A DNA stretch of 64,000 nt from a virus. The position numbers and the translations under genes were made by a program. Shown piece after piece: positions 3,077 through 61,746 of this stretch. The first letter of the stretch is position 1, and each line of letters opens with the position of its first letter. A model generated the notes under the pieces. That model had not been told where the DNA came from, did no database searches, and saw nothing but the letters and a program-made list of their open reading frames with translations. The stretch covers positions 1 to 64,000 of the IMG/VR virus record IMGVR_UViG_3300026484_000333. One strand, given 5' to 3'.

Positions 3077-3638
3077 TCCTTTCTATTTTACCATACTGAA
3101 TTGAATTCCTAATAAATATAATACTTTTTACAATAATAAATTTAAGATTACTCAAAGGTATATCATTTATATTTGCAGTTTTTATTAAACCATAACCTTT
3201 TATAAAATAATCGTGTAGAATTTTAAGCTCAAAATTTGTAAAATAATCATTTAATAATTCTCTAATATCTTCTTGTAACATATATTTTTCAATATCTTCT
3301 GCATAATTTTCATTTATATGAAAATCCTCATAATCTTCTGGGGTAGCAGTTAACCACCCTTCTTTATCTTTTAAACTCTTTTTAATAGCACCATATTTAT
3401 TAAGACTATTTTTTGCCACCCAATCAAGCATTCGCCCGTAAACTTTTTTATAGGCAAAACCCATAAAATAATCATTTTTATCACTATCATAATTTTCTTT
3501 TGCTAAAAGATAACCTAAAACTCCCTCTTGAATCAAATCTTCTAAATCAATCCCTGCAAAGCTTTTTTCATATACTTTATACGCCAAACCCTCAATATGT
3601 TTATAATCCTTGTCCGGTATATTATATTTATTCGGCAT
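3036..3638 (-). CDS. Phage RNA polymerase sigma factor, FliA/sigma28-like
   Basis: Region 2 EDLIQEGVLGYLLAKENYD..FMGFAYKKVYGRMLD and a degenerate region 4. Start moved to ATG 3638, which has an AGGAG RBS. Confidence 0.85.
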   Translation of the reverse strand: MPNKYNIPDKDYKHIEGLAYKVYEKSFAGIDLEDLIQEGVLGYLLAKENYDSDKNDYFMGFAYKKVYGRMLDWVAKNSLNKYGAIKKSLKDKEGWLTATPEDYEDFHINENYAEDIEKYMLQEDIRELLNDYFTNFELKILHDYFIKGYGLIKTANINDIPLSNLKFIIVKSIIFIRNSIQYGKIERIDKDEVKKYYNSF

Positions 3639-5316
3639 TTGTAAGCTCCTTAATTTCCAAACTTGAAATACCATTTTCCTTTATAATAGTAAACAAATAA
3701 TCTGCAAAAGTTTCTTCAATTTCGTTATGATGTGTAATAATAAATATAGCTTTATCTTGTTTTAAATAATTTAAAACATTTTTCATAAATTCAATACCCT
3801 CATCGTCCAAAACGCCAAGCAACTCATCAATAACAAGAAAATTAATATTAATACCTATTAACTCTTCTAACGTTTTAATAGTAGCTAATAATAAAAGTAA
3901 ACTAACTCTTGTTTTTTCCCCGGAACTTAACTGATAAAAGGTCTTTTTAACCCCTTTATCTATAAACTTATAATCCAAACTGCCTTTATTTATTTTAATT
4001 TCAAAATCAAAATCAAATGCACTTTTATCTTTAAAAAACTCTACATTAAGTTTTAAAAGGCGCACATAATCTTTTAAAAACTCATTCATAATTACACCTT
4101 TTTTAAATAAAACCAATACCTCTTTATATGCGTCAATTTTTTTACTTAAATAAAGTCGTTTTTCTTTTAATTCTTCTAATTTCTCTTTTAGTTTATCAAT
4201 ATTGTCTTCAAGTTGTTTTTTAAGCTCTTTTTGCTTTATATACTCATCTTTTTTCACTTTTAATTTTTCAATCTGTAATAAAATATCTTTTTTCTTTTGT
4301 TCAAATTTGTTTTTCATTTCCTCGTATTTTTCTTTTAATGTTTCTACTTTATTTTTCTCTTTTTTATAATGTTCTTTAAACTCCTTAAATTCTTTATCCG
4401 CTTTTTTAAATTGTTCTTCATAAATTTTATACTTATCAGTAACAGAATTACCACAAATAGGACAAACCCCTTCTTTTAACTCTTCTTTCAATTTATATAA
4501 ATTTTCCGCCTTAATTTTTAATTCAACTGCCCTTTCTTTTAATTCATCTACTTTTTCTTTTTGAATTAAATACTCTTGTTCTCTTTGCTGAATTATTAAA
4601 ACCATTTCACTTGTTTCTAATTTATATAATTGTTCCTGTAATTTGTTTATCTCTTCCTCATAATTTATTTCTTCAATTTCTTCAAGTTTATCAAATAAAG
4701 ATAAATTATCTTGAATAGAATTGTATTGAACTAACAATAAATCATATTCCTTTTTCAATTCTCTTATTTGTTTTTGCACCGCCTCTTGATAGGCTAAAAC
4801 TCTTTCAACATTAAAAAATCTATAAACAATATTGTTTTTACCTGTAATTTCAATAATACTATCAAGAGAAGTTTGATTAAGATAAGTAAGAGAAGTAATT
4901 ACATCAAAATCATAATTAATAATTTCAGTTTTAATTAAATTTAATTGGTTTGTAATACCTTTGGGGCTTATAAATTCTCCGTTTTTGTAAATGTCAATTG
5001 ACATTTTATTTCTATCATTAATTATTGTAAACTCATTTTTACATTTTTTAAAATCAAGAGAAATAACATAAGGTTTTTTTGTATAAACATTATTAACAGA
5101 TTGAATGTTCCCTTTTTGGTCTTTAAGATTTTTATTAAAAAGACATTGATAAATTGCATTAAAAATACTTGTTTTACCCGCCCCGTTGCTTACTAATGTA
5201 TCACTTTTTATATCTTTATTAACACCTTTAACAAGATAAACCCCGTTTTTAAATTCAAACTCAACTTGCCCCAATGAATAAAAATTTTCTATCTTAATTT
5301 TCTTAAATTCATACAT
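3628..5316 (-). CDS. sbcC: SbcC/Rad50/gp46-like recombination ATPase
   Basis: Walker A NGAGKTS, coiled coil with CPIC zinc hook, signature LSSGEK, Walker B VIDE. Confidence 0.93.
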   Translation of the reverse strand: MYEFKKIKIENFYSLGQVEFEFKNGVYLVKGVNKDIKSDTLVSNGAGKTSIFNAIYQCLFNKNLKDQKGNIQSVNNVYTKKPYVISLDFKKCKNEFTIINDRNKMSIDIYKNGEFISPKGITNQLNLIKTEIINYDFDVITSLTYLNQTSLDSIIEITGKNNIVYRFFNVERVLAYQEAVQKQIRELKKEYDLLLVQYNSIQDNLSLFDKLEEIEEINYEEEINKLQEQLYKLETSEMVLIIQQREQEYLIQKEKVDELKERAVELKIKAENLYKLKEELKEGVCPICGNSVTDKYKIYEEQFKKADKEFKEFKEHYKKEKNKVETLKEKYEEMKNKFEQKKKDILLQIEKLKVKKDEYIKQKELKKQLEDNIDKLKEKLEELKEKRLYLSKKIDAYKEVLVLFKKGVIMNEFLKDYVRLLKLNVEFFKDKSAFDFDFEIKINKGSLDYKFIDKGVKKTFYQLSSGEKTRVSLLLLLATIKTLEELIGININFLVIDELLGVLDDEGIEFMKNVLNYLKQDKAIFIITHHNEIEETFADYLFTIIKENGISSLEIKELTNAE

Positions 5317-10804: not shown

Positions 10805-11152
10805 TTAACCCTCTAAATCATTAAAAGTTTTAAGAAGAGTAGCAATATAAGCTAAATAGTGCGTCTTATCAACATTTTTTAATACCTCAATTAGTTTAAC
10901 AGTAGAATCAATTTTTACATTTTCCATTTCCTCTAAAAAAACAGCAAAACTGCTTACTAAATTTTCATTTTTATCTGCTATATTTGTAAATAAAATTAGT
11001 AAAGCAACTGTATCTTGCTCTAAAACAGCTTTATTAAACAATTCACGATTTGTTTGATATTGCTCTACTAAATTATCAAACTTTTCTTCACTAATACCAT
11101 AAACTTCCCAGATTTTTTCTGCATTTAAGTTTACTACTTTTAAATCTCTCAT
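10805..11152 (-). CDS. Hypothetical protein, first gene of the early nucleotide-metabolism operon
   Basis: AAGGAG RBS directly after a sigma70 promoter. Confidence 0.75.
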   Translation of the reverse strand: MRDLKVVNLNAEKIWEVYGISEEKFDNLVEQYQTNRELFNKAVLEQDTVALLILFTNIADKNENLVSSFAVFLEEMENVKIDSTVKLIEVLKNVDKTHYLAYIATLLKTFNDLEG

Positions 11153-11182
11153 TTTTCTCTCCTTTGTTTTATTTGCATCAAA

Positions 11183-11252: not shown

Positions 11253-11274
11253 AAATCCCTAAATTTAGGGATTT
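11253..11274. terminator. Palindrome, probable terminator of the late operon
   Basis: AAATCCCTAAATTTAGGGATTT, a perfect 22-bp palindrome downstream of ruvC. Confidence 0.55.
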
Positions 11275-11281
11275 TAAAAGG

Positions 11282-11333
11282 ATTTTTGGTTGGATATAAA
11301 TAAAAACTTTAAGGCTCCGGACACTTTTGGACA
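11282..11333 (+). repeat. Dispersed intergenic element, copy 1 (core only)
   Basis: TTTTTGGTTGGATATAAATAAAAACTTTAAGGCTCCGGACACTTTTGGACA. Confidence 0.9.
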
Positions 11334-11341
11334 AAAATTAA

Positions 11342-11821
11342 TTAGTTTAGAAGTCCATATAAAGCAAGAGCATAAGCATCAACTAAATCGTCTATTTTTT
11401 TATATTTATCAGAAAATCTTTTTATAATAAGCTCGGGAGTATTACTAATCATATCTTCTTTTTTAGCTCTTCCATTTTTAGTATAGAATTTTTTTAAAGT
11501 AGTTGGCGGAACTAAAACGATTTCATAATGTTTTTTAAGGCTGTAATAAACACTGCCAAGTAACATTGCTAAATCTACGACTTTGCCCTTTGAATGTAAA
11601 GAAATATCCTCTATAACTATTTTTGTAAAAACGTCTCTATGCTGTCTTATATATTTTTTAACTTCTCTACTAACAATATAAGCTCTTTCTTTAATATCTT
11701 TATTTTCGGGGGAAATTAATTTAAAATCTAATAAACCTCCAGAATTCGACAAAACCACAATTCCTGTATTTGTAGTAGATAAATCAACACCTATATAAAA
11801 ATATTTTTGTTGATTATTCAA
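11342..11821 (-). CDS. ruvC: RuvC-like Holliday junction resolvase
   Basis: IGVDLS..TG, IVIED, PTTLKK..G.A.K, DDLVDA motifs. Confidence 0.88.
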   Translation of the reverse strand: MNNQQKYFYIGVDLSTTNTGIVVLSNSGGLLDFKLISPENKDIKERAYIVSREVKKYIRQHRDVFTKIVIEDISLHSKGKVVDLAMLLGSVYYSLKKHYEIVLVPPTTLKKFYTKNGRAKKEDMISNTPELIIKRFSDKYKKIDDLVDAYALALYGLLN

Positions 11822-20913: not shown

Positions 20914-23900
20914 TTACCTTCCTACAACATTCTTAATTATTTCTCTACCACTTCTACTTGTTAAATAATCTTCAAAAGCTTTAGTATCTACACTGTTTAA
21001 TATTACAATTTCTGGTGTAGGAGCGGTTACGTTCACTTGTGGTGTTGTGTTACCACTTGCTTTAATTGCTTTAACCTCTTCTTTGCTTAATACATACTCA
21101 CCTTTTTGTAGAATAGCTGGAATTTCATCATCTTTCAAACCACCCATTTGTTTATTGGCAGTCTTTCTATCAACATAACCTCCTGTATGATATTTTTGAG
21201 CTTTTATAACTGCTACTCTCATCATACCTGTAGCAATAGCCAACCCAGCCGCCACGAAGTTTATTGGAGGAGGCAAGGTTGCCATAGCTTGTTGTGCAGA
21301 AGTATAAGTGTCTATAATGGCTTGGGCAACTCTCATAGCTTTATAAACCCTAAACCATTTTTTCTGTTTTAACAGTCCTGCCCTCATCATATCATCTAAA
21401 GCACTTGCAAATTGTCCTATATAACCACTTACAGCACTTAAAGAGGCATTAAGACTTGCTGTCTCCATTGCCTTTCTTTTTTCAACTTCAGCTTTAATAA
21501 TTTCAGTCTTCAACTGTTCAATCTGTTTTAGACCTTCAATTTCAGACATTCTTCCAGCCATAACTGCTTGTTGTATTTCAAGTTCTTTTGCTTGAATTAA
21601 AGCTTTTTTCTCATCATAATACTGTTTTATCAACTCAATCTGTTGTTGATATTGTTGATAAGCATTTATAGCTCCTGCAGTTCCGCTATCCAACTGTCCT
21701 GCTTTTATACCTTCTTGGACTTGTTGTTGTTTTTGTTTTAATTCCTTCTCTTTAACACCAATATATGCACTTATATTAGCAAAATAGGCATCTAATTTTG
21801 CTTTATCTTGTTCAGTGTTAAAATTAACAATACTTAATTTCTGTCTATTTTCATACATTTTATTTTGAATATCAAATAAAATATTATTTGCAGGATTGTT
21901 CATAGATTTTGTTTCTCTATTCATTTCAGCAATTATTGCTAACATCTTCTGTTTCAATTTTACTTCTTTTATTTCCGCTTTTAAAGTACTTTTCTTTAAT
22001 TCTTCTTCTTTTTGATACAGACCTTTTATTTCGTTTTCTAATTGTTTTTTTCTTTCTAATAATTGAGTTCTTTGTTCTTCATCTTTATAACCTGTCGTTC
22101 TTAAGGCTTTTATTTGCATAATCAAATTATAATATTCTCTTTCTTTTGTAACTCTTTGATTATAATAAGTTTTATATAAACTATCTAATCTTTGTACTTC
22201 TTTTTGGGCTTCAAGCAAATCATCTTTAATAGGTAATCTGCCTGTTTGACTGATTTGTTTTAGTTCATTAAAAGACTGTCTTAATTTATCTGCAAGTTTT
22301 GTTATCTCGCTTTCAACAATCCCAAAATCTTTAAAATTAAAAATATCTTTTATCTGATAATCTACACTCTTAACAGCTATTGGTTGTTTATTTGTTTTTG
22401 GCAATAAAGAATTAGTGCTTTCTATTCTTGCTTTTAAAATACCCTCTAAATTAGCAAAATCTTTATCTAATCCGCTTAAATAAGCTTTTAATGACTGATA
22501 AACATTTTTATCCAAACTATCTTTCATTTTATCTAAAAGCAATTTAAGCTTCAAAAATTCTGCTTCTAATTTTACAACATCTTTAGGATTAGTTGCATTT
22601 TTCATCATATTTTTAAATTTATCAAGTTCTCTATTTAAATCTTGAGGTAAAACATCTTTAGAAATTTTTGCTTGTTTAAAACTTATTTCCATTGATTTTA
22701 CTAAACCGTCCATTGTATTTTTAAAGGCTTTGTCTATTTCTTGATTTAGATTTCTACTTAAATCAGAAACATCTAACCCTTGTTTTAGAAAATATTTTAT
22801 CTTTTCTGCTATTTGTTGAAATCTTTGTACTTCTTCTTTTGAAACAATTTTTATTAAACCTTTTTTTGTTTTTTCTTTCATATTTTTTATACTAACACCA
22901 AATTTATTCTCAAAATCTTTTATATCTCTATTAAGTTGTTCTAACGGATTGACATCAAATTCCATTAGATTTAGATTTTGTTTCATTTTTTCTATTTCTT
23001 GGTTAAGAGTTTTACTTTGAGTAACAGCTTTTGAGAAATCAGGCTGTAAATTTTCCCAAGTCACATTTCCCTTCACAGCTTGAGTAACCACAGGAGTTTT
23101 TTCCTGATAAGGCTCAAACACACTAATAGGTTTTTGTGTTTGATTTTTCGGTTTATAATTAGCAAATTGTTTTAATTTTTCTAATTGCTTTTCTAATAAG
23201 TCTATTTGTTTAGAAATTTCTTCTGAATTAGTTTTATTATATTCAATTTTTAATCTCTCAAGTTTGGCACTTAATAGCTGGTATTCTATATATTTTTGTG
23301 CTTTATCTATCTCTTCTTGTTTTTGTTTTACAACTTGTTCTTGCTGACCTACAATTTTTTTATAAACTTCTAATTGTTGTTCTATTTTATTTAACTCATT
23401 AGTCAGAATCTTAACTCTTTCTTGGTCATTATTTACCAATGCTTCTGCTAACTGTTTTTTAAATTGTTGTTTTTTGGCTATCAAACTATCATATTGTGAA
23501 ACCAAACTATTTAATTTTTGTTGTTCAGCTAAAAGACCATTGCTTCTAGCAATTTCTTCATTTACATTTTTAACAGTCATAAATAATTTTACAAAAGCCC
23601 CAACAGCCAAAGTTGCCAATAAAACATAAGGATTTCTCAAGGCAATCGCTCCTATTGCTGTTAAAGCACTCATTATTTTCTTTAATACTCCTACTAACCC
23701 TAAACCTGCCACACTTGCACTACTAAATATACTTACTAAATTTTTTATACCCCTAAAAACAACCAAACCGCCTAAAGTAACCCCTATACCTTTTATTATA
23801 GTCCAAATATTACTTAAATCCTTTTGAATTTGTGGCATTGCATTATTAATTGCATTAATCCATTCAGTTGTTTTAGTAATCATTCTTTCTAATACAGGCA

Positions 23901-26835: not shown

Positions 26836-26912
26836 TATAAAATCCTTTGAAACTTATTATTACTAATAGATATATCAGATAAGATTAATATAGATAGAAT
26901 AAAAAATTAAAT

Positions 26913-27057
26913 GAATTTTTGGTTGGATATAAATATAAACTTTAAGGCTCCGGACACTTTCGGACAGCTTTAAAACCCCCTAAAATTCGGGATTTTAAAT
27001 TTTAAACGTAAAAAATCTTTTACAAAAATCGCCAAAACTCTTGTATAAAATCCTTTA
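26913..27057 (+). repeat. Dispersed intergenic element, copy 2
   Basis: 54-bp core at 26913-26966 plus box CAAAACTCTTGTATAAAATCCTTTA at 27033-27057. Confidence 0.92.
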
Positions 27058-35228: not shown

Positions 35229-35419
35229 ATCGTATCCTTCCTCATTATAGTATCATCCATATGCTTTACAGAATCTATATAGTTTTTGATTATCATATCT
35301 TCGTCAAATAGCACTTCTATAATGTGAAAATAAAATATTAATATTAGCATCATATTATTAGTTTCATTCAAAGATTCTTTATAAAACTTTGGACAGTCTC
35401 GAAGAATAATATAAAGAGA

Positions 35420-35447
35420 AAAATCACTCATTAGAGTGAGTGATTTT
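35420..35447 (-). terminator. Intrinsic terminator after the major capsid gene
   Basis: AAAATCACTCA-ttagag-TGAGTGATTTT, followed by a T-rich run on the minus strand. Confidence 0.75.
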
Positions 35448-36654
35448 AGTTAGAAGCTACATTAACAATTGCAGATACAGGAGTTGAGTTCACACAAAGT
35501 TTTTTGAAGTCAATATCTCTATATCCAACATATAGAGTTGTTGAACTTACAGCTTTTCTTTCAGTTTCGATTCCAATGTTTCCTCTGTCTGCAACACCAA
35601 AGTATGCTTTGTTAACAAGAAGAACTGCTGTTTTATCTCCGTTTGTTTCGTCAACATCACCATTAGCGTCAAGATTGTCAGGGATGTATTCAGTTACAAT
35701 AATAGGCATACCAAATAGTTTTCCGATTTCACCTACCATAATAGTTGCTTTAGCACCATATTTGTCAACAGTTAAAACTTCAGGTAATTCAAGCATTTGA
35801 TATGCTACATTTACAGGAGCTACAATAGCAAGGTCACTTAAATTAATACCATAAACGCCAAGTAGTCTTCTTGCTTGTGCAATTAGTGAAGCAGTTACTG
35901 CATTTCCACCTGCGTCAACTTTGTTACCAGCACCTTTTGCATATTTTAAAAGACCGTCAAATGCTTTTTTAACATCGTTAACGTCAGCAATAGCTGTGTC
36001 ACCCATTACAAGTGCATCCTCTGTTGCTCTTGCAAGTGATTTTACAAGTTCTTGTCTTACAAGCTGTGTAATCGCCGTTACCATTTCTTGGTCAGCTTGG
36101 TCAGTTACTGCAAGTAGTGTTTTAAATCTTGAAGTTGCAAAACTTACTTTTGCACCATTAATTGCACTTTCAATTGCGTCATCACCCGGAGCAATTAAAT
36201 ATGCTTTTGCTTTGTCCGTTTTTGCTGGAATAGAAAATGTGCTTCTATTTTCAGGCATTCTAAATCTTTGGAATAATCCCTCAACTTTAAGGTCAAGTTC
36301 TAGTTCTTCCATTACCCTGTTAGAAAACTCTTCTGCCAACCAACTTGCAATGTCTGCTGGTTTAATTGCTTTTTCAACAACAGGAGCGATTTCTTTAAAT
36401 TCTGCAAAACTATCGGCAGGTCTTCCAAGAAGTTTTGACTTAATATGCAAATCAACTGCTTTTTCTCTTGCTTTTGCTACTTCTTTGTCATCAACAGATT
36501 TTTCTTCAAATTGTGTTTTTCTTTCAGTCCATTTGTCTTCAAATTCTTTTTTAAGTTCTTCTACTTTTTTTTCTGATTCAGTTTTTGTACTGTCAAGCTC
36601 TTTTTTAAGCTCTTCTACTTGTTTTTGTAGAGTTGAAATTACTTCAATTCCCAT
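35446..36654 (-). CDS. Major capsid protein, HK97 fold with N-terminal coiled-coil delta domain
   Basis: Coiled-coil N-terminus, EDALVMGD, FDGLLK, GKLFGMPIIVTE. Confidence 0.92.
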   Translation of the reverse strand: MGIEVISTLQKQVEELKKELDSTKTESEKKVEELKKEFEDKWTERKTQFEEKSVDDKEVAKAREKAVDLHIKSKLLGRPADSFAEFKEIAPVVEKAIKPADIASWLAEEFSNRVMEELELDLKVEGLFQRFRMPENRSTFSIPAKTDKAKAYLIAPGDDAIESAINGAKVSFATSRFKTLLAVTDQADQEMVTAITQLVRQELVKSLARATEDALVMGDTAIADVNDVKKAFDGLLKYAKGAGNKVDAGGNAVTASLIAQARRLLGVYGINLSDLAIVAPVNVAYQMLELPEVLTVDKYGAKATIMVGEIGKLFGMPIIVTEYIPDNLDANGDVDETNGDKTAVLLVNKAYFGVADRGNIGIETERKAVSSTTLYVGYRDIDFKKLCVNSTPVSAIVNVASN

Positions 36655-37526: not shown

Positions 37527-39045
37527 CTTCTTCTTTTTGTAAATGTTCTGTAAGTTTTTCATTTATGATTTTTTCAAGTTCACCATAAACATTTAAAAGA
37601 TAATCAAGTCCTTCAACATCATTTGCTTTTTCTTTTAATTGCTCTAACAAATCAGGCTGGTTTTCTTCCGTTTTTTGTTCAGTTACATTTTCTTCTTTAT
37701 TTTCTTCTTTTCCTGCTTGGTTGCTATCATTATCTAATTCTTTTTTATTGTCTGGCTCTTGTTCTTTTTTTACTCCGTTATCATCTCTATCTTGGAAGTA
37801 ATCTTTCATAAATGCCAAAAGTTTTGCAACCTCGCTTCTGCCTATAACAAAATCATAAACATTACCATCGTCTTTTACATATCTTCTAATTCTATAACCT
37901 AAAGGCGGATTAGGATAAGCAGTTAATACACTTTCGCTTGTAACATTAACAATAAGTTCGCCATTATCTCCGCCTTGGACTTGGTCACCTTCTTTTAAAC
38001 CTTGACTTGATTCAATAATTTGATTTACCTTATCTTTTCCAAGATTAGTTGTCCCACCCCTACTAGCTTTTGTTTCTATAGCAGTCAATTCCTTAATTTC
38101 TGAATAAATTTTTTCAACTTGTGCTTCAAATTCTTTTGCCATTTCTTCTAAATCAGCTGGAATTTCACTTATCATTTCTTGTTTTAACATTTCTCTATAA
38201 TGTTTTAATAAATGCCTACTTGCATCTCTTTTTTCCACAGCACTAATATTAGGATTATTCCTTGCTCCTCTTAAAGCCTGATAAGCACTTATAACACCGT
38301 TTTTATTAACAACTAAATCTTCGCCTTGTAGTTCGTGATGGGGGAATTTCCAAGTACTTCTCTTTTCAACATCGCCTACAACTAAATAGCATTCTTTGAT
38401 ATAATTTTCTTTCCCTAAATCTGCCAACTTTTGCCCGAGAGCTGTTTTATCAACATCTCCCCACGCTTTATCACTAATTACATTGTTTTTAATTGCTTTT
38501 TCTATACCCATTTCTACATATCCTTTCGTAATTAAATTTTGTCTTGTTGATAATAAGCACACACCATTTTCACAAGGACTATTTTCTAAAACCGTAAATA
38601 AACTTTCCTGATTATCTGGTATTGAAACAATACTAACCTCATAAAGTTCAATTTTAGTCCAATACCAAACACCATTCATTTCTTTATAATCTATGCCTTT
38701 AAAGCCGATAGAAAATGCTTTTAAAATACCTTCTTTTACTGCAAAATAAACTTTTGGATTTAATGCCTCATAAACTACAGCCTCAATTTCAAGACCTTTT
38801 GAAGTTAGATTAATGTTTGTGACTTTACCTACAATTTCATCTTGCCTGTGTTGATAAAGTAAAACAGGATTTTTCATAAAATTAGTTAAATCATAGCTTT
38901 CAGGCAAAACGCTCTCATCACTTCTATCAACAACCAAATTTCCGTTATCATCAAGATAACGGTTTGCAAAACCTTTGATAGTTATTTGTCCATCACCTGC
39001 TTCTGTTGTAAAATTTTTTATAACCAAATTTAAAGTTTTATCCAT
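37519..39045 (-). CDS. HK97-type prohead protease (S78) with long C-terminal extension
   Basis: NPVLLYQH, AFSIGF, ELYEVSIVSIPDN. Confidence 0.92.
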   Translation of the reverse strand: MDKTLNLVIKNFTTEAGDGQITIKGFANRYLDDNGNLVVDRSDESVLPESYDLTNFMKNPVLLYQHRQDEIVGKVTNINLTSKGLEIEAVVYEALNPKVYFAVKEGILKAFSIGFKGIDYKEMNGVWYWTKIELYEVSIVSIPDNQESLFTVLENSPCENGVCLLSTRQNLITKGYVEMGIEKAIKNNVISDKAWGDVDKTALGQKLADLGKENYIKECYLVVGDVEKRSTWKFPHHELQGEDLVVNKNGVISAYQALRGARNNPNISAVEKRDASRHLLKHYREMLKQEMISEIPADLEEMAKEFEAQVEKIYSEIKELTAIETKASRGGTTNLGKDKVNQIIESSQGLKEGDQVQGGDNGELIVNVTSESVLTAYPNPPLGYRIRRYVKDDGNVYDFVIGRSEVAKLLAFMKDYFQDRDDNGVKKEQEPDNKKELDNDSNQAGKEENKEENVTEQKTEENQPDLLEQLKEKANDVEGLDYLLNVYGELEKIINEKLTEHLQKEEDE

Positions 39046-39080
39046 TACTTCTCCTTAAACTTTCTTTAAAATTATATCGG

Positions 39081-40439
39081 CTAAACTTTTAAGTCGGGAC
39101 TGCCCCCTAATGGGTCTGTACTTCCCATACTGCTTGGTTTATTGTTACTTTGGTTTTCAGAATTATTAGTATTATTTTCTGAATTATTTTGGCTCATTGC
39201 AACTAAATCTTGAAAGAATTGTGCTTCACTACCTGTTAAGAAGGCAGGTACAATATTCTTATCTGCACCTTCAAAATCCATTTCCGGTAAATCAACCAAA
39301 TCCCTTGCTTCATTTAATGTAGCAAGTCCTGTTGCAAACAATGTTCTTGCACTGTCAGCTTTTACATCTAAAGCAGTATCAAGTTCAGTAATTCTTCCAA
39401 AGTCAAATTCAAAATGATATTTTCCATAACCAAATTGTTTTCCTAAAAATAAATTAATTTGGTCTTGTATTCTATAAAGATAAGGTCTAACTGCGGTATT
39501 AAACACAACTTTCATTAATTCCTGTGGTTTTCCAGCACTGTTTGCCTCACCGCCTAAAACAAGTGCGTTTAGTTTGAAAACTCTTAAAACTCTTTTTTCA
39601 CTTATATTCATACTATCTAAAAGCATTGCGTCTTTAGGACTTGCTTGAACGGTTTTATAATCCATTTTGGCGGGTAAGACTGCTATACCTCTCCTCTCAC
39701 TACCGCCTTTTCCATATAAAGCGTTAAATTGTTCTCTCAATTCTTCAATTTGTTGTGGAGTTAAGGCATATTCGGCTTTTAAAATACCAGCTAAAATTAC
39801 ACTGCCCTCATAAAACTCTTGTAGGCTATCAATTGCATTTTTTTCCAACTTTAATGTATCAAGCAAAGGTGCTACGCTTGGTAGTCCATAATAAGCATTG
39901 TTTAGAGTTGGATTTATAATCCAAATAAGTTCGTTTTCTTTATAAGCAATCTTATCATTATAAATATAGCCTTTTATAAATTTAGTAGCGTCTGGAACAA
40001 CTTTAACATTATGAGGTTGAGTTAAAAACCAAGTTTCATAACTTCCTTTTACATTTTCAAAGGTTAAAGGGGCTACACCTGAAAGCAACAAACCTTGAAT
40101 TGCAAGTTCAATTGTTGTTCCCCAAGACCAAAATGGATTAGGTCTATATTCCCATTCTCTTAATTTTTTGTCTTTAACAGGAAGTTTTTTACCTGATTTA
40201 TCTAATTGATATAAGCGTGGAACTGCTTGTCCTCCTGCTTTAGCAATATAATCAACTGCACTAAAAACAAGTTCAGTTGTATGGAATGTATTTTCCATAG
40301 CACTTGTAGCTAATACACCGTTTCCATCTTTATAATCTTCAATGATTTTTTTGTTTGCTTTTGTAGCTTTAGTGTCCATATAAATTAACGTTTCTTTATT
40401 TTGTTGAGGCTGTTTTTTAAAAAAATCAAAAAAACCCAT
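39081..40439 (-). CDS. Portal protein, HK97-like
   Basis: PNPF, YYGLP, AGILK, TLNEARDL motifs. Confidence 0.92.
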   Translation of the reverse strand: MGFFDFFKKQPQQNKETLIYMDTKATKANKKIIEDYKDGNGVLATSAMENTFHTTELVFSAVDYIAKAGGQAVPRLYQLDKSGKKLPVKDKKLREWEYRPNPFWSWGTTIELAIQGLLLSGVAPLTFENVKGSYETWFLTQPHNVKVVPDATKFIKGYIYNDKIAYKENELIWIINPTLNNAYYGLPSVAPLLDTLKLEKNAIDSLQEFYEGSVILAGILKAEYALTPQQIEELREQFNALYGKGGSERRGIAVLPAKMDYKTVQASPKDAMLLDSMNISEKRVLRVFKLNALVLGGEANSAGKPQELMKVVFNTAVRPYLYRIQDQINLFLGKQFGYGKYHFEFDFGRITELDTALDVKADSARTLFATGLATLNEARDLVDLPEMDFEGADKNIVPAFLTGSEAQFFQDLVAMSQNNSENNTNNSENQSNNKPSSMGSTDPLGGSPDLKV

Positions 40440-40479
40440 TTGTTTTCCTTTTTAATTTATTATATAACATATATCAGCT

Positions 40480-40656
40480 TAAAGGAAAACAATAAAAACA
40501 AAGGAGAGAAAAATGAATAGATTGATTGAATTATGAGCTGGAAGCTCAATTGAAGTTTATACAGAAATAAACTTCAATTGAACGCCCATCTCAGGCGTTC
40601 TATATTTAACACCCACATCAGGTGTTATAAATTGAACGCCCACATCAGGCGTTCTA
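40480..40656 (-). ncRNA. Putative late structured small RNA
   Basis: Late promoter at 40660-40668 with no ORF behind it; three 27-nt-period hairpins with compensatory changes, then a 15-bp stem. Confidence 0.65.
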
Positions 40657-40672
40657 CTGTTATATCGGAAAA

Positions 40673-41722
40673 TCACACAAGTCTTGTTGAAATATAAACG
40701 CCTTTGTATGTTCTTTCACTTAAAGTTGCATTAGTAGTAAATAAAGGAAAATGTTTAATACTTACAGTTTCTTTGAAAAATTCACTGAAATAAACTTTTC
40801 CATCTGATGTTTCTTGTCTAAATCTAAATTTTAGTTGATTTACTCTTCCCCATTGTGGATTTGAACTTGAAAAGTCAAGTGATATTTTATTGCTTGTGAA
40901 TTTACCAATAGGATAATAGGTACTTCTTCTTGATTTTGACCTTCCTCCGGTATTTCCGTGATTATTAAAGTTGGTAACTTTATCATAGCCCCACATCTCA
41001 AGAACTAAATCTTCTGGGAAAGCTTGTCCAAAAACAAAACCGCCTACTGAAATTGTATTAAAAAATTTCTTGTTTAATTGCATAGTGTCAGTTCCGTTAA
41101 ACTGCCTATATGTTACCGTCCAATCCGTTGGGTCATCATTATTCATAACTGCACTTTCTAAATACATACTCTGCTTTGTATTATCCCATAAAGTAGTAGG
41201 TATCATAGCATTTCTTGCTTTTACTCTTGTACTACCTTCATATCTATCTAATCTTATATTATACATTCCACCGAATTTAATCGGCTCTTTATAAATAATT
41301 TTAATTGTTCCTGATGGATAGCCGTTAGGGAAACTAATATGCTGGGTGTAACCCGCAGGATTTGCAAATTGTATTCCAAATTCCCAATCATCAAACAACG
41401 TTTCATTGATATAGATTCTTACTAAATCTTTATTTGGAAAAATTAATTGTCTTAACCATAATAAGTTATGGGGTGAAATATTATCTGTATGTGAATACAT
41501 AATTATTTTTTCTTCTCTTATATTATTGCCTCCAAACGGAATTAAATATCCATTTGTAATTGCATCGTTTACATTGCTTGAAGCCACTGAATTATCCGCC
41601 ACAACATAATAACCATAATCACCTGAATCCACAATAACCAGCTGATTTAATTCATAATTTTTTAACATAATTGTGTCAGTTGTTTTTAACACAGGTATTT
41701 TATAATGTGTGTAAACTGCCAT
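40673..41722 (-). CDS. Virion fibre/decoration protein
   Basis: N-terminus similar to 52398-53960; remainder similar to the C-half of 41732-43603. Confidence 0.6.
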   Translation of the reverse strand: MAVYTHYKIPVLKTTDTIMLKNYELNQLVIVDSGDYGYYVVADNSVASSNVNDAITNGYLIPFGGNNIREEKIIMYSHTDNISPHNLLWLRQLIFPNKDLVRIYINETLFDDWEFGIQFANPAGYTQHISFPNGYPSGTIKIIYKEPIKFGGMYNIRLDRYEGSTRVKARNAMIPTTLWDNTKQSMYLESAVMNNDDPTDWTVTYRQFNGTDTMQLNKKFFNTISVGGFVFGQAFPEDLVLEMWGYDKVTNFNNHGNTGGRSKSRRSTYYPIGKFTSNKISLDFSSSNPQWGRVNQLKFRFRQETSDGKVYFSEFFKETVSIKHFPLFTTNATLSERTYKGVYISTRLV

Positions 41723-41731
41723 TTTTACTCC

Positions 41732-43603
41732 TTATATAAGTTTCATTAATTTGTAGTTTCCTACAAATTTGTTTTCATTATCTTCTGCATCTGTAGTAAA
41801 TATCGGAAAAGTCCTTATGCTAATAACCGTTGACAACCATTGACTAAAAAATACATTTCCTTCATCATCTTTTCTGCCTAGCCTAACATAATATAAACCA
41901 CAATCATATAAACCTGAAATTTTATTTTTTGTCATTTTTCCAATCGGAACTAAACGTCCTTGTGCTTCTTTATTTTTTGGAATATGCTTACTATTTGGAG
42001 ATTTAACATCAGACGCTCTCCATAGCTCAATCCAATAATTATCAGGTAATACTTCTTCTTTTGGAAATTCAGCTATATAACCAAAATTAGCACTTGCTTT
42101 TTCTACGTCTATTGTTATATTTGAATTATCCACACGCTTATAGTGGCACATATAACGTCCGAAATCCATATAATTATTTAATAAATCAACAGAATCCAAA
42201 TAGAATCTATTGCCCTGACTATCGGTGATAAATTTGGTAATTAATTTTGACCTTACCATTACATCAGTACTGCCTTCTTTTCTATATAAAACAATTTTAT
42301 AATCACCTAAAGCAATCGGCTCAACATATTCAATTTTGATAACATCATCGTCATTTAAACTTGTATTAAATTTCAAATGTGTTGTATAATCGCTGTTTAA
42401 ACTTTGGACTTGGTCGCCAAAATCCCAATCTGTATATTCAGCATCATTTACCCAAACTCTAAACAAATTCTTATCTTTATAAACATAGCGTTTTAAGAAC
42501 AACAAACTTTTACCTGAAATATTACTGCCTTTTCTATAAATAAAAACACGATTTAAACTGTCGGCAGTAGCATTAAAACTAAAAAGCTCTCCCGTACTAA
42601 TATCAACACCTATAACATAAGAATTTTCTGGTTTTTGTTTAGGTGTTTTTCCATAACTATAAAAAATAGGATTATCTTTTTTAAAATCAAATTTATCTTT
42701 AGTTACAGACATATAAGCTTCAATTGAGGCAAAATCATCACCTAATGCTACATCAAATTGTGCTGTATCTCCATAAGCACCGACTGCCAATTGCTTATCA
42801 CTAAAGTTACCGCCTTTTCCAGCCAAATAGGTTTGATAAAAACTTGAAGGATACATTGTTAGAAAGACTTGGTCTTTATATGGGTCAGTTGAAGTAGAGG
42901 CAGTAAAACTTGCCCCAGCATAATTATCAGAATTATTTGTATTTGTTACATTTACTTCAACAATTCCATATACATTTTTACTAATTTGAATTTTTTGAAC
43001 ATCGTTTGCAGTTTGGTCGCTTGGGGTTAAAGTTTTACCTATTCCTGTATCTGCATCTTCTTTTTGCCAATAGTTCTTTCCATCAATTATATCACACAAA
43101 TCTTTTGGCGTATATCTTCTAACTTCATTAACATCACAAGGGTGGGTTTTTTCTTCATCAGATATTTTATGAATATTAACTCCCAAATAAAACCAATTTG
43201 GATTGCCTTCTTCATCGCTTCTTGCTTCATACAAACCAGCTTTTTTTCTATTAAATAAAACCCAAGTTCCTGTTGCTTTTTGAACTAACCATTGTTCTCC
43301 AAGATGGTCGGCTGGGTCTGGTAAATCAGCATAAGTTTCAACTTCGCCTTCCCAACCGTCAAAATTAGAACTGCCTCCTCCTAAATTAACCTCAACCCAA
43401 TCAACAAGATTATCCTGTAATTGCCAAAATTTTTGGTCTTCTTGGTTATAAACAACCATTCCCGCTTTTCTTCTCAAATCAGGAATGTTATCACGCTCTT
43501 CAGTTGTGGCTACAACACGAAACCCGCCTTCTAAATGGATATCCTTAATTAAAGGAAAATCCCCATTAGGATAAAATAAACCCGTTATTTTTATACCAGC
43601 CAT
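41732..43603 (-). CDS. Virion fibre/decoration protein
   Basis: GGFRVVAT..RDNIP..RRKAGMVVY N-terminal module; C-domain paralogous to 40673-41722. Confidence 0.6.
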   Translation of the reverse strand: MAGIKITGLFYPNGDFPLIKDIHLEGGFRVVATTEERDNIPDLRRKAGMVVYNQEDQKFWQLQDNLVDWVEVNLGGGSSNFDGWEGEVETYADLPDPADHLGEQWLVQKATGTWVLFNRKKAGLYEARSDEEGNPNWFYLGVNIHKISDEEKTHPCDVNEVRRYTPKDLCDIIDGKNYWQKEDADTGIGKTLTPSDQTANDVQKIQISKNVYGIVEVNVTNTNNSDNYAGASFTASTSTDPYKDQVFLTMYPSSFYQTYLAGKGGNFSDKQLAVGAYGDTAQFDVALGDDFASIEAYMSVTKDKFDFKKDNPIFYSYGKTPKQKPENSYVIGVDISTGELFSFNATADSLNRVFIYRKGSNISGKSLLFLKRYVYKDKNLFRVWVNDAEYTDWDFGDQVQSLNSDYTTHLKFNTSLNDDDVIKIEYVEPIALGDYKIVLYRKEGSTDVMVRSKLITKFITDSQGNRFYLDSVDLLNNYMDFGRYMCHYKRVDNSNITIDVEKASANFGYIAEFPKEEVLPDNYWIELWRASDVKSPNSKHIPKNKEAQGRLVPIGKMTKNKISGLYDCGLYYVRLGRKDDEGNVFFSQWLSTVISIRTFPIFTTDAEDNENKFVGNYKLMKLI

Positions 43604-43674
43604 TATGCTACTCCTTCTAATTCCGCACGTTCTCTCACATTTCTTCTCTGTGCTAATACTCTTTTATTATTCAT
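43603..43674 (-). CDS. 23-aa coupled small ORF
   Basis: MNNKRVLAQRRNVRERAELEGVA; TAATG overlap with the next gene. Confidence 0.4.
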   Translation of the reverse strand: MNNKRVLAQRRNVRERAELEGVA

Positions 43675-43684
43675 CACAAACCCT

Positions 43685-44503
43685 TTAAGATAACTCTACA
43701 CAAGCACTGCCTGTTTGCTTGTAAGTAGTTCTTAATAATTTATAAGTTATAGTTGCACCATAAGAGTTAGTAACATCAATATCCCCGGCATAAGAAATAT
43801 CCCAACCAAAACCATTATCACAATCAACTGCTTGATTTACTTCTCCCCATTCAGTAGGATAAACAATATAATAATACAAACCTTCTCCGTTAGGGTTATC
43901 AAAACTATAATGTTCAGCATATCCACTTTTCAAAGCACTATTTTCAAGATTTTTAACTTCATTTTCCGTTAACGTATCATTCACTGAAGTTCCCCAATAA
44001 ACTCTTGCCCTCCAATAAACACGAAAATCACGGCTAAATGTTTGACCTTTTGTGTTAACTCCGCTAATTCGCCAAGTATAATAGCTGTTAATTCCGTTTG
44101 AAGTTTTATCACTGCCTATGTCCAAGTCTTCTTGTCCGTCATTAGCCAAGTTCTGTCCTAAAACTTGATTGGCATTCACATCTTTAATGCTAATTGAATT
44201 TTCCTGTATGTTTTCAGGACGGCTTGTAGTCCATTTGAGTGTTCTAACTCCTCCGCTTATAACTTGACCTACTTCTAACTGTGTTGCCTGTCCGTCAATA
44301 TAAAAACTTGTAAAAGCAGGATATTGATAAGGAAACAAAATCATTTTCAAAACATCACAAGGTTGCATTCCGTTGATGTCAGTTCCAGCTTCCAAACCTC
44401 CGTGCGTTTCAGGAACTGCATCTTCAGTTTGCATAACACAACCGCCAGACCCTCCACCAGCTCCTATGTCAGGATAAATCACAGAAAACTTATTATTTGC
44501 CAT
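43685..44503 (-). CDS. Virion structural protein (Ig-like)
   Basis: Own late promoter; beta-rich; between TerL and portal. Confidence 0.6.
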   Translation of the reverse strand: MANNKFSVIYPDIGAGGGSGGCVMQTEDAVPETHGGLEAGTDINGMQPCDVLKMILFPYQYPAFTSFYIDGQATQLEVGQVISGGVRTLKWTTSRPENIQENSISIKDVNANQVLGQNLANDGQEDLDIGSDKTSNGINSYYTWRISGVNTKGQTFSRDFRVYWRARVYWGTSVNDTLTENEVKNLENSALKSGYAEHYSFDNPNGEGLYYYIVYPTEWGEVNQAVDCDNGFGWDISYAGDIDVTNSYGATITYKLLRTTYKQTGSACVELS

Positions 44504-45900: not shown

Positions 45901-45985
45901 TAAATTATCCTTTTTAATGAATTGTAATTTTAAGTTATATCAGATTTGATAGAGGTATAAAAAGAAAGTATAAAAGAATTATAAG

Positions 45986-46142
45986 GAATTTTTGGTTGGA
46001 TATAAATATAAACTTTAAGGCTCCGGACACTTTCGGACAATTTACAAAAGTCCGAATTTTCGGTAGTTTTGTCGATTTTAATATAAAGAATTTTTTATAA
46101 AATAACTAAAATTTTGTCAAAACTCTTGTATAAAATCCTTTA
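45986..46142 (+). repeat. Dispersed intergenic element, copy 3
   Basis: Core at 45986-46039 identical to copy 2; box 2 at 46118-46142. Confidence 0.92.
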
Positions 46143-46147
46143 CGCTA

Positions 46148-46176
46148 TTGACAAAATGTAAAAAATCCTTTATAAT
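46148..46176 (+). promoter_or_regulatory. sigma70-type early promoter
   Basis: TTGACA-N17-TATAAT. Confidence 0.85.
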
Positions 46177-46207
46177 TTCAATATAAATAAAAACAAAGGA
46201 GAATAAA

Positions 46208-46855
46208 ATGGCATATTTTGATGGGATTAAAGTAGGTGATAAAGTTTGGCATTTTGAATATGGATGGGGAACAGTTGTAGAGTTGTTAAAAGCTTCTGAT
46301 TTAGATGGAAAAAATTTTAATCCTTTAAATGATTTTGATTTAATAGAAATTAAATTTGATAATGTTTATTTTGGGTGTGGGTATTTTGATTTGAATGGAG
46401 TGGCTTTTTACTCCAATGGTAATCAAACATTATTTTGGGGTGAAGTTAAATTTGAAATCCCAAAAAAGCCTAAAATTGAATTAAGAAAAGAAGAATATCT
46501 TATAGATGTTGTATACAATAAAATTCATTATGATAAAGATTTTAAAATGTTTGATAATTTTAACCATTCTTTAACAAGGAATGATAAAGAAACAGCTGAA
46601 AAAGCTTTTAGAACTATTAAAAGATTTACAAGACTTTTGGCTCTTCGTGACCAAGAATGCCCTAATAGTAAAGGCTATGAATTTAAGCCTAATAAAGAAA
46701 ATTATTATATTTTTTACAATGAATTAGAGAATAAGTATGAATATGATTATGAATGTATTTATAATCATTTAGATGTTTACTTTAATACAGGAGGAGATGC
46801 CCAAAAAATTTGTAATATTTTGAATTCAGGAAAATTTAATTTAGAAGGAAAATAA
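46208..46855 (+). CDS. Hypothetical early protein
   Basis: AAGGAG RBS; SH3-like KVGDKVW..GWGTV N-terminus. Confidence 0.75.
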   Translation: MAYFDGIKVGDKVWHFEYGWGTVVELLKASDLDGKNFNPLNDFDLIEIKFDNVYFGCGYFDLNGVAFYSNGNQTLFWGEVKFEIPKKPKIELRKEEYLIDVVYNKIHYDKDFKMFDNFNHSLTRNDKETAEKAFRTIKRFTRLLALRDQECPNSKGYEFKPNKENYYIFYNELENKYEYDYECIYNHLDVYFNTGGDAQKICNILNSGKFNLEGK

Positions 46856-53960: not shown

Positions 53961-54032
53961 TTTTATTTTCTCCTTCTTATAGCTTTACTTATATATCAGC
54001 TTTATAAATTGATTAAAAAATTTACAATTTTG

Positions 54033-54188
54033 TAAAGGATTTTATACAAGAGTTTTGGCAAAATTTCACACATTTTATAAAAAATCTTTTATACAAAAAT
54101 TGCTCAAATGCCCATAAATTCGGACTTTTGTAAATTGTCTGAAAGTGTCCGGAGCCTTAAAGTTTATATTTATATCCAACAAAAATTT
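54033..54188 (-). repeat. Dispersed intergenic element, copy 4 (inverted)
   Basis: Reverse complement of box 2 at 54033-54057 and of the core at 54136-54180. Confidence 0.92.
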
Positions 54189-54284
54189 CATTTTTTTTAT
54201 TCTATAAACTGATATATAAATAAAGTTATAAAAATAAACAAATTCATAATTTATGTTTTATGTTTTATAATTTATATTTTAATC

Positions 54285-54313: not shown

Positions 54314-54338
54314 TAAATAAAAAAAGAAAGGAGCATAA

Positions 54339-56207
54339 ATGAATAGAATGAATAAATTGATTGAATTAATCGAAAAAGAAAAAAAAGAAAGAAAAAAAAT
54401 TGAAAAAATTTTGATAAAAAGAAAAGATAAAAAAGTTGCAATCAAGCCAAACTCATTTAATGAATTAGCTCAATTGCTTAAAAATTATACAATAATTTTA
54501 TATCAAATGTCAAGAGTTTTATCAAATTTTTCTAACAAAAATTCAGGAATTCTTAACAATTTGTTATTTTTGTTAGAAAAATTTAACAATTCGTCAAGTT
54601 TTTATAGAAATTATAAACATTTTGTTATGGCAATAATCGAAGGAAAAATCGAGCCACAATTTGTTGCCCAAAATTTCGCTCAATTTTATATTGCCCTTAC
54701 TTCAACGCATTTTGAAACCAAAGGTTTGAGCTTTGTTGCAAATCCTTATCAAGCTACGCAAATTGATAAAGCAAGACCGAATACAAAATATGGAAAATTC
54801 AGCTATATTAGAAAACAGGGATATGAGCAGAATTTAGGTCTGACTTTTGACAGTGAAAGCTATGATGTTGTTGAATATTTTAAAATGATAACAAATGACA
54901 AATGTGCGTTTTTTACACCAAACAACAAATATTCTAAAAATTCATTAAGATTTGATGTTGATGATAAAACTTTGAATATGGATGAAATGGAAATTTTGAT
55001 TAGAACTGCGATGGACAAATTGAACATAAACGGTGAAGTCGAAATCGTCGAAACAACGAAAGGTTGGCAGTTTGCTGTTTATGTTCCGTTGTTTTTCGTT
55101 AAAACTTTTTATGATAAAAATGATTATGTTGTTGAGCAGATTTTCGTTAGTGATAGAAAAACAACAAAAGCATTTAAGGCATATCAAAAATTCAACGAAA
55201 AATTTGTTGAGATTTTAGAAAATTTGGCGGTTGAGCTTTTTAATGTCAAATTAGAAATTGACAAATTTGCAGTAGAACAAGAAAAAGTTAGAATTTGGAG
55301 AAATGCAAAAGCCCACAATCATCGCTATTTTTCGGTGGTTGAAAACGAAAAATCAACGATTTTAGAAATGATTGATTTGCCAAAATTAGAACAAAAAGAA
55401 AATTTTGTCAATCATTTTGAAGCCAAAAAAGCAAATGAAATTGAACTCCGCAACAAAATGCCGAATGTTTATAAGTTCTTTAAAAAACACAACTTTTCAA
55501 TGCCGAAAATCAAATGCGGATTGATTGGCAAAATGAGCGAAAATACCGAAAGTTTTTATCTTACAAAAGCAATTGTTCACAAATTTATAATTGATTATAA
55601 TCATTTAGAAAATTTTGATGTTTTGTTGTTGGATTTGGCAGAAATGATAGAACTTGATTTTAGGAATATTTATCAAGAAGAAAAATCAATTGAAAATATA
55701 AATGTTGTGATTGATTATTATTTAGAAAATTTTGATGTTTATTTAACCGCCCAGAAAACCGCAAGAAGCCGAATGTTTGTTAAAAGTGCGAAAGCACTTG
55801 ATAACATAAGAAAAAATAGAAATAATTTAGATGAAATGAAACAAAAAATTGAAAAAAGCAAAAATGAACTTGAAAAATTTAAAAATAACGATGAAAATAA
55901 ATTGTCAATTAGGAAAATGTCCGAAGAATTGAAGAAAATTGCTTTTGATTTGCCAAAATCAACGCTTTATGAATATATCAAAAAAGAAAATGTTGATATT
56001 TTAGTTGAAATGATTGAAATGTTGTATAGATATGTTATAATTTTAATGAACGGCAGTGAAAAAGAACAGCAAAAAGCAATTCAATTGTTCGAAATTATCG
56101 AACAGTTACAAGGTGCGGTCAATTATGTTATAGCTATGATGAAGTTTGATTTGGTTGAAAATGAAAAATTACGAAAATTTTTTTATGTTGAAAAACGGAA
56201 GGAATAA
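54339..56207 (+). CDS. Putative replication protein, AEP/primase-polymerase-like with C-terminal HTH
   Basis: LRFDVDD (DxD), IVETTKGWQ (motif II-like, with Q for H), LSIRKMSEEL..LPKSTLYEY HTH. Confidence 0.55.
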   Translation: MNRMNKLIELIEKEKKERKKIEKILIKRKDKKVAIKPNSFNELAQLLKNYTIILYQMSRVLSNFSNKNSGILNNLLFLLEKFNNSSSFYRNYKHFVMAIIEGKIEPQFVAQNFAQFYIALTSTHFETKGLSFVANPYQATQIDKARPNTKYGKFSYIRKQGYEQNLGLTFDSESYDVVEYFKMITNDKCAFFTPNNKYSKNSLRFDVDDKTLNMDEMEILIRTAMDKLNINGEVEIVETTKGWQFAVYVPLFFVKTFYDKNDYVVEQIFVSDRKTTKAFKAYQKFNEKFVEILENLAVELFNVKLEIDKFAVEQEKVRIWRNAKAHNHRYFSVVENEKSTILEMIDLPKLEQKENFVNHFEAKKANEIELRNKMPNVYKFFKKHNFSMPKIKCGLIGKMSENTESFYLTKAIVHKFIIDYNHLENFDVLLLDLAEMIELDFRNIYQEEKSIENINVVIDYYLENFDVYLTAQKTARSRMFVKSAKALDNIRKNRNNLDEMKQKIEKSKNELEKFKNNDENKLSIRKMSEELKKIAFDLPKSTLYEYIKKENVDILVEMIEMLYRYVIILMNGSEKEQQKAIQLFEIIEQLQGAVNYVIAMMKFDLVENEKLRKFFYVEKRKE

Positions 56208-61624: not shown

Positions 61625-61746
61625 AATTTTTTAGTAATTATTTTATAATCACTTGGCAATTTTTTAGTAATTATTTTATAATCACTTGGCAATTTTTTAG
61701 TAATTATTTTGTAATTACTTGGCAATCATTTTTATAATCATTTGGC
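61625..61746. repeat. 33-bp tandem repeat, three copies plus a partial
   Basis: AATTTTTTAGTAATTATTTTATAATCACTTGGC units built from 11-mers. Confidence 0.92.

Follow-up and report, generated by a model that had tools for sequence, protein, structure and literature searches.

Inverted early-leader copy upstream of the portal gene of a vent phage: a candidate antisense element against early start sites

Why does the untranslated spacer ahead of a phage portal gene carry, on the strand of the late genes, the complement of the start sites of the phage's early genes? The phage record comprises 83,931 bases with direct terminal repeats, and the window, i.e. the whole stretch of DNA analyzed here, is its first 64 kb (64,000 nucleotides). 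The phage has a G+C content of about 27%, its sequence is present in a DNA run labelled hydrothermal vent metagenome, and it reads under translation table 11; genetic code 4, under which the TGA of the short reading frame described below would be read through, was dropped, the long ORFs being open under table 11. The spacer itself covers 233 bases (40440-40672) between two minus-strand genes:

40673-41722, minus strand: gene for a 349-aa protein, function not assigned, the upstream border of the spacer
39081-40439, minus strand: portal gene (Phage_portal, 133.8 bits), the next coding sequence after the tail discussed below

The large terminase gene is found three genes upstream. Between it and the portal gene stand genes for proteins of 349, 623, and 272 aa (40673-44503, minus strand), an unusual content for a terminase-portal interval; the trio has no Pfam hits and a single weak PHROG hit of unknown function. 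A DNA search with 39000-42000 against 50,697 phage records returned zero matches, and a search with the portal protein found relatives only at 26% identity or less, which points to neither a cultured relative nor a host. Our comparisons are based on three full genomes, those of this phage (G000) and of two further vent phages (G001 and G002), and on fragments from four DNA runs, apparently from few studies. Both G002 and G001 retain the whole spacer, with portal identities of 94 and 88%, respectively, and the gene neighboring the spacer is 59% identical in G001. When viral and metagenome contigs were scanned with a conserved 20-mer, only G001, G002, and their duplicates were true matches; three other matches were discarded as apparently coding and, by eye, unrelated, with neither a hairpin array nor an anti-start-site tail.

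A sequence-only reading of this DNA had proposed that the tail of a late RNA is antisense to the start regions of three early genes. The parts of the stretch concerned are as follows:

40491-40515, minus strand: anti-start-site core, the complement of an early leader, Shine-Dalgarno (SD) sequence, and AUG
40513-40536, plus strand: seven-codon ORF (MNRLIEL, stop) behind the copied ribosome site
40516-40533, minus strand: complement of the first codons of the 622-aa gene, lineage-specific

All three matches were confirmed. Positions 40495-40516 are the reverse complement of 11149-11170 at 22 of 22 bases, covering the ribosome-binding site (RBS) and ATG of gene 10805-11152; 40491-40507 equals 46186-46202 at 17 of 17 (leader and RBS of gene 46208); and 40512-40533 agrees with 54347-54368, the first codons of the 622-aa gene, at 21 of 22. 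Such matches far exceed chance: in 100 dinucleotide-preserving shuffles of the window, searched with both 22-mers at up to three mismatches, the expected counts were 0.00 and 0.02, and the observed count was reached in no shuffle. On the plus strand the stretch reads, as had been described, an SD sequence, an ATG at 40513, MNRLIEL, and a stop at 40534-40536. Each of the three targets is the first gene behind a sigma70-type promoter, with scores of 11-12 of 12 (TTGACT-17-TATAAT, TTGACA-17-TATAAT, and TTGACA-17-TAGAAT). The label "Rep-like" attached to the 622-aa gene is unsupported, with no PHROG or Pfam hit above threshold.

Although each of the three matches is correct, the list is incomplete, since further gene starts match exactly. 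Beyond the window, exact matches are found at 68661-68681 (21 bases), 72606-72623 (18), 76080-76097 (18), 77784-77800 (17), and 68977-68993 (17). Over the whole genome, the plus strand of 40491-40517 has 17-22 exact bases in common with at least eight gene starts; the matching starts are 11152, 46208, 68663, 68969, 72610, 76083, and 77788, with 65115 matching more loosely, and most of them belong to first genes behind near-consensus sigma70-type promoters. Exact matches at so many gene starts suggest that the stretch copies the consensus of a class, not three particular genes. Judged by its sequence, the plus strand of 40491-40515 is a further copy of the phage's standard early leader, SD sequence, and ATG. 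It is the only leader copy with no gene behind it, being followed by just seven codons and a stop, and the MNRLIEL ORF is probably not a gene.

The seven codons agree with the start of the 622-aa gene in its G002 homologue at 18 of 18 bases. In this phage the 622-aa gene itself begins with a 9-base tandem duplication that creates a second in-frame ATG (54339-54365, plus strand). Neither the G002 homologue nor the copy at 40513 has the duplication, which breaks complementarity to the tail and is, by this sequence comparison, a later gain of this phage's own gene. A contig from run X2 contains a variant of the 40516-40533 stretch that differs at 2 of 21 bases, and an equivalent of this stretch was not found in G001 or G002.

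Which strand of the spacer is transcribed, and from where, is indicated by promoter motifs and by predicted RNA structures:

40661-40668, minus strand: upstream late-promoter motif (CCGATATA), member of a 14-copy family
40576-40656, minus strand: three 27-nt tandem hairpins, the 5' part of the presumed late RNA
40547-40580, minus strand: long stem-loop, 13-14 pairs here and about 22 in G002, U-tract absent after the stem
40535-40547, minus strand: small 5-bp hairpin between long stem and tail, in a 4-bp form in G001 and not in G002
40470-40477, minus strand: the portal gene's proximal late-promoter motif (CTGATATA), with the ATG 38 nt downstream

The minus strand has 14 copies of the motif C[CT]GATATA versus 1.7 expected (maximum of seven in 100 Markov simulations), and 12 of the 14 sit 27-43 nt before a late ATG. 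Two copies are located in the spacer, at 40470-40477 and 40661-40668. The latter is the only copy in the genome with non-coding hairpins instead of a gene downstream, and its 20-base surroundings, used as a pattern with a single Y, match all three phages. The anti-start-site segment lies, as the earlier proposal had it, on the transcribed (minus) strand of the late region and downstream of a late-promoter motif of the kind that precedes 12 late genes. The proposed RNA had further been called sigma28-driven. The late-promoter motif is present; a host sigma28 is not required, the phage having a sigma-like gene of its own. The encoded 212-aa protein (3036-3674, minus strand) matches Sigma70 region 2 at 31 bits, above the cut-off, and has a PHROG sigma factor hit; a region 4 hit was not found in it, and its best NCBIfam likeness is to FliA/WhiG (best to FliA), far below the cut-off. 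We infer that the phage sigma factor probably reads the sigma28-like C[CT]GATATA late promoters.

Predicted structure also favors the minus sense. The stems of the tandem hairpins are retained in nine of nine cases across the three phages, the variable pair being G-C in three and A-U in six; the long stem has two compensatory pairs in G002 and two G.U pairs in G001 that are valid on the minus sense only. Predicted energies of array plus long stem, minus versus plus sense, are -55.7 versus -50.1, -50.7 versus -37.5 (G001), and -51.8 versus -46.7 kcal/mol, so that the hairpin scaffold claimed from the sequence is real and minus-sense specific as far as folding predictions in all three phages can tell. 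The hairpins were also considered as ordinary terminators, an option that was dropped, the RNA strand being without U-tracts after the hairpins. An Rfam search of the three loci (4227 families, E up to 1) yielded nothing above threshold; it gave four sub-threshold chance matches, three miRNA-like and one viral pseudoknot, and the C4 family, which we take to be RF01695, was not among them.

Termination at the stem before 40533 would have left the tail out of the RNA. On the minus strand of all three phages, the interval from the long stem to the portal ATG contains no terminator-like site. A trans-encoded small RNA would be expected to have its own promoter, which is present at the sequence level (40661-40668), and a 3' end defined by an intrinsic terminator, which is lacking in all three. 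Because of the late-motif context, the minus-sense folding, and the lack of terminator-like sites ahead of the portal ATG, the tail is very probably transcribed as the complement of an early start site. It may prolong the hairpin RNA at its 3' end or belong to a long leader of the portal gene.

Among the gene starts that such a tail could meet, three correspond to those of the original proposal:

11149-11170, minus strand: candidate target, leader, SD sequence, and ATG of a 115-aa early gene; predicted duplex -38.6 kcal/mol, best of 117 gene starts
46186-46211, plus strand: candidate target, leader, SD sequence, and ATG of a 215-aa early gene; predicted duplex -37.5 kcal/mol
54321-54368, plus strand: candidate target, start and first codons of the 622-aa early gene; predicted duplex -31.4 kcal/mol, the match being split by the 9-nt duplication

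The nine best predicted duplexes of the tail with the 117 gene starts range from -38.6 to -29.3 kcal/mol. Eight of these nine involve operon-first starts or the same core, six of them with sigma70 promoters scoring 11-12 of 12, and the ninth (72332) has a related SD-to-ATG core. The median is -18.4 kcal/mol for all 117 starts and -16.4 for late genes; the one-sided Mann-Whitney p is 0.0019. By predicted duplex energy the complementarity favors early over late start sites, in line with the sequence-only reading. The best complements to the tail, at 11, 46, 54, and 65-78 kb, belong to other transcription units, and the trans duplex of the tail with the portal start is predicted at -19.1 kcal/mol, rank 51 of 117. 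How free the tail would be to pair differs between phages: its predicted unpaired value in the long RNA is 0.92 in G000, 0.48 in G002, and 0.24 in G001, the G001 tail being predicted to pair mostly with the portal start site and the G002 tail to be about half paired.

The relatives show how the segment has been maintained. Between phages the anti-start-site core is identical at 22/25, 22/26, and 23/26 positions (85-88%), and the adjoining linker at 16/31, 21/31, and 15/28 (52-68%) with indels, a pattern other than the neutral local drift of a decayed gene start. Gene conversion could mimic such constraint. In the two relatives that retain the segment, it follows their own leader variants, and the seed complementary to several start sites is conserved. 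In a matrix of tail-versus-leader scores, each tail scores best against the early leaders of its own genome in all three rows (mean top-3 scores, own versus others, 23.0 versus 17.8/22.5, 19.3 versus 16.3/16.8, and 25.0 versus 20.2/15.7), the margin between G000 and G002 (23.0 versus 22.5) being small. A single substitution and a single inserted base underlie this tracking: at a position where the G000 leaders mostly have C, those of G002 have T, and the G002 tail likewise has T, with exact 24-27-base matches to four of its own leaders; G001 leaders have an extra A before GGAG, and so does the G001 tail. Early cassettes are homogenized within G002, and are near-identical within G002 and within G001. 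With margins this small, such homogenization keeps conversion in play beside selection.

In contigs from a further four DNA runs, close variants retain the tail. Of the 49 differences of the X5 contig, 39 are listed, and none of these falls in 40494-40532, and an inserted A follows 40493; uncovered parts and the 10 unlisted X5 differences limit this comparison. In one more diverged X2 contig, 152 unalignable letters replace 40398-40568.

That the segment descends from an early gene start can be accepted without assigning it any role, and an inert recombination scar has to be weighed first. On this account, which we consider unlikely, an early cassette of promoter, leader, and gene entered in divergent orientation next to the portal promoter and then lost most of its length, and the remnant has been held similar to the live cassettes by gene conversion instead of function. 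The sequence-only reading had named a relic of an early gene start as its own alternative; it was correct on origin, as the 18 of 18 bases shared with the G002 gene start attest, and leaves the conservation unexplained. The plus strand does read as leader, SD sequence, ATG, and seven codons of the start of an ancestral 622-aa gene, and the homology to live starts, the truncated ORF, and the lack of a promoter are what a decayed gene start should show. Divergent late/early promoter layouts are intact at 45943/46208 and 53999/54339, and near-identical early cassettes within G002 and G001 suggest concerted evolution. The late region of G001, on the minus strand, contains two intact plus-strand early promoter-leader cassettes (35300-36000 and 23100-23800) with ORFs of 41 and 128 aa, so early cassettes do insert among late genes. 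An inert scar, however, should not conserve its copy beyond the linker that adjoins it, nor keep the SD-to-ATG spacing intact in all three phages. The homology ends near the transcription start with the promoter absent, and conversion would need to work on just 25-40 bases of inverted homology.

Very unlikely, in our view, is that the plus strand or the DNA itself is the functional form, whether as a tiny translated ORF, as a short plus-strand RNA ending at the hairpins, or with the leader serving as an operator for an early-promoter regulator with a further site of binding 14-45 bp ahead of the portal's late promoter. The perfect SD sequence, spacing, and ATG of all three phages fit translation, the first hairpin is terminator-like on the plus strand, and an operator would account for a copy that tracks each genome's own leader. 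Against these points, a plus-strand sigma70-like promoter scoring at least 10/12 was not found upstream of the mini-ORF in any of the three phages, the single 9/12 match in G001 being at background frequency; the peptides of 7, 11, and 10 codons are unrelated in sequence; the minus-sense structures are the more stable; the copy is present at no other late promoter; and no candidate regulator was identified. One further plus-strand promoter candidate, TTGTTT-17-TATAAC, was rejected as a 9/12 match that misses the final T and is not retained in the relatives.

The remaining alternative acts in cis on the portal gene, through a sequence directly 3' of the segment:

40481-40492, minus strand: 12-nt arm, a perfect complement of the portal SD region 40440-40451

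In long transcripts, whether these read through from genes upstream or begin at the upstream late promoter, the pyrimidine tract would pair with the portal SD sequence and AUG; only RNA begun at the proximal promoter, inside the loop, would be translated, and the likeness to early leaders would be a by-product of the arm's origin. We regard this as an explanation of the segment about as unlikely as the inert scar, and as one that folding predictions support about as well as pairing in trans. The arm complements the portal SD sequence at 12 of 12 bases, the CTGATATA motif (40470-40477) stands between the two arms, and the predicted unpaired values of the portal start site in long versus short RNA are 0.24 versus 0.83 in G000, 0.39 versus 0.81 in G002, and 0.25 versus 0.48 in G001. 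Among the late-motif gene starts scanned per phage, the portal shows the largest difference between long and short RNA in G000 (0.59, next 0.25, n=12) and G002 (0.42, next 0.21, n=10), but only the fourth of 10 in G001. Masked start sites with an internal late promoter have a precedent in T4, as a review of that phage describes them (PMC3014915). Yet the local hairpin is no better than shuffles in G002 (z +0.95) and marginal in G000 (-1.64) and G001 (-2.16), the 12-nt arm of G000 is not retained in G002, and the segment 40491-40533 is itself predicted to be largely unpaired in G000. Moreover, the tail matches early leaders, with 22-27 exact bases, far better than it matches the portal start, and the late motif of the portal gene is shared by the hairpin RNA and the genes upstream, which leaves no earlier temporal class of transcripts to mask. 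The masking arm coincides with the anti-early segment in G001 and partly so in G002, and an antisense role does not preclude a role in cis on the portal start.

Taken by its sequence, the stretch is an inverted copy of the 5' end of an early mRNA without its promoter. It spans approximately the transcription start through the SD sequence and AUG, plus in this phage seven codons of the 622-aa gene, and read on the minus strand it gives a pyrimidine-rich "anti-start-site" in untranslated late RNA. The copy follows the hairpin array, which is led by a late promoter, and the long stem, and is followed in turn by the portal gene with its late promoter. We tentatively favor, at less than even confidence, an antisense element against early start sites, the mechanism first proposed for this DNA and a plausible one. 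Strand, late context, scaffold, significance of the matches, preference for early genes, and conservation all speak for that proposal; the late promoters need not be read by a host sigma28. The antisense reading draws on exact 17-22-base matches at eight early starts where shuffles expect about none, on the duplex energies of the early class, on the late-promoter context and the minus-sense structure, on the lack of a terminator-like site and of a plus-strand promoter, on a core conserved beyond its linker, on the tracking of own leaders in all three phages, and on the tail predicted to be largely unpaired in the G000 long RNA. We count against it the tail pairing predicted in G001 and G002, the absence of the 622-aa-gene part from both relatives, a tracking so narrow that recombination could keep the copy uniform without selection, and the small number of genomes, with the unalignable spacer of the X2 contig among the sequences compared.

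If the antisense reading holds, the phage's own FliA-like sigma factor would transcribe the hairpin-tail RNA late in infection, and the 5' hairpins would stabilize it. Its single-stranded tail would pair over 17-27 bases with the near-identical starts of the first genes behind sigma70-type early promoters, and the pairing would block ribosome entry or form a duplex cleavable by RNase III. That the RNA is made, that it includes the tail, that it meets early mRNAs, and that the pairing represses them are four steps that we infer.

A second non-coding stretch of this genome also contains anti-SD motifs. At 65,460-65,580 (minus strand), outside the window, a sigma70 promoter scoring 12/12 stands ahead of non-coding DNA that contains three copies of an anti-SD motif; the motif complements start sites common to genes at 62-65 kb, a second class. 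This class comprises eight starts in G000 and four in G002, both of which have the module, and none in G001, from which the module is absent; the G002 module has a base change in its first motif, and one G002 gene start is the exact complement of the variant. The joint presence and absence of module and class raises the prior that this lineage uses such RNAs. It is possible, though in our judgment rather unlikely, that these elements form a timing device of a lytic phage, in which class-specific anti-start-site RNAs use uniform leaders as an address: the late tail would shut off all operon-first early genes together, and the sigma70-driven 65.5-kb RNA would do likewise for another class.

Early shut-off in lytic phages is known mainly through proteins, for example RegB and RegA of T4. 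The RegB endoribonuclease inactivates early messages via their common GGAG-type SD region, according to the T4 review (PMC3014915). The element described here would likewise address early messages through a shared SD region; RegB, however, is an early-made protein nuclease as that account presents it, while here a late-made RNA would do the recognizing. On small RNAs, the same review states that none acting in trans as a regulator had been functionally characterized in T4 (PMC3014915), and in a 2025 review of phage small RNAs the term "early genes" does not occur (PMC12197685).

The element resembles both antisense and masking devices by its sequence, and no described family was matched in Rfam. 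In the c4 antisense RNA of P1/P7, as outlined in the 2025 review, exposed segments pair around the RBS and block translation (PMC12197685). Like c4 so described, the candidate would be a phage RNA whose structure presents a segment complementary to an RBS region. Unlike c4, it has no above-threshold Rfam match, and the C4 model does not recognize it; its complements are many unlinked genes, whereas the c4 target is by that description the next gene of the same operon; and it combines a late lytic setting with a linear tail, where c4 is portrayed as acting in immunity through loops. In the T4 genes e, soc, 49, and I-TevI, as the T4 review reports, the start site is masked in long transcripts and a late promoter lies inside the hairpin (PMC3014915). 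The portal spacer shares with these genes a late promoter between an upstream arm and a pairable start site, and, as far as their description allows comparison, a start predicted to be closed in the long RNA and open in RNA from the proximal promoter. It differs in that upstream transcription carries the same late motif instead of belonging to an earlier class, in that the arm resembles unlinked early leaders far more closely than the portal start, and in its uneven conservation, the masking being weak by z-score in G002 and unremarkable in G001. A likeness of another kind is offered by CjNC1 and CjNC4 of Campylobacter jejuni, sigma28-transcribed ncRNAs that are described as pairing with 5' UTRs of the preceding class and partly repressing reporters (PMC4626219). 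Here, too, a candidate RNA of the last-acting sigma class would face 5' UTRs of the preceding class. Those RNAs, as that paper characterizes them, are discrete small RNAs and cellular flagellar regulators, and the likeness is one of logic, with no claim of homology.

If an RNA does address a whole temporal class via its shared leader, this would be a simple and programmable switch, and the uniformity of early leaders among these phages would have an explanation. Should the cis reading be true instead, the T4 design of a promoter inside a masking hairpin would also be found in an unrelated phage from a vent, and in a portal gene. The element lends itself unusually well to testing, with a length of about 25 bases, known targets, and natural variants that provide ready-made compensatory pairs.

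Two repeated sequences of the window lie at or between transcription-unit borders. A dispersed element of about 100-220 bp is found at borders between late and early transcription units, adjoining late-promoter motifs (11268-11363, 26901-26996, 45969-46191, and 53984-54206, one copy being inverted). In the gap between convergent operons at 61625-61731, a 33-bp unit is repeated three times in tandem.
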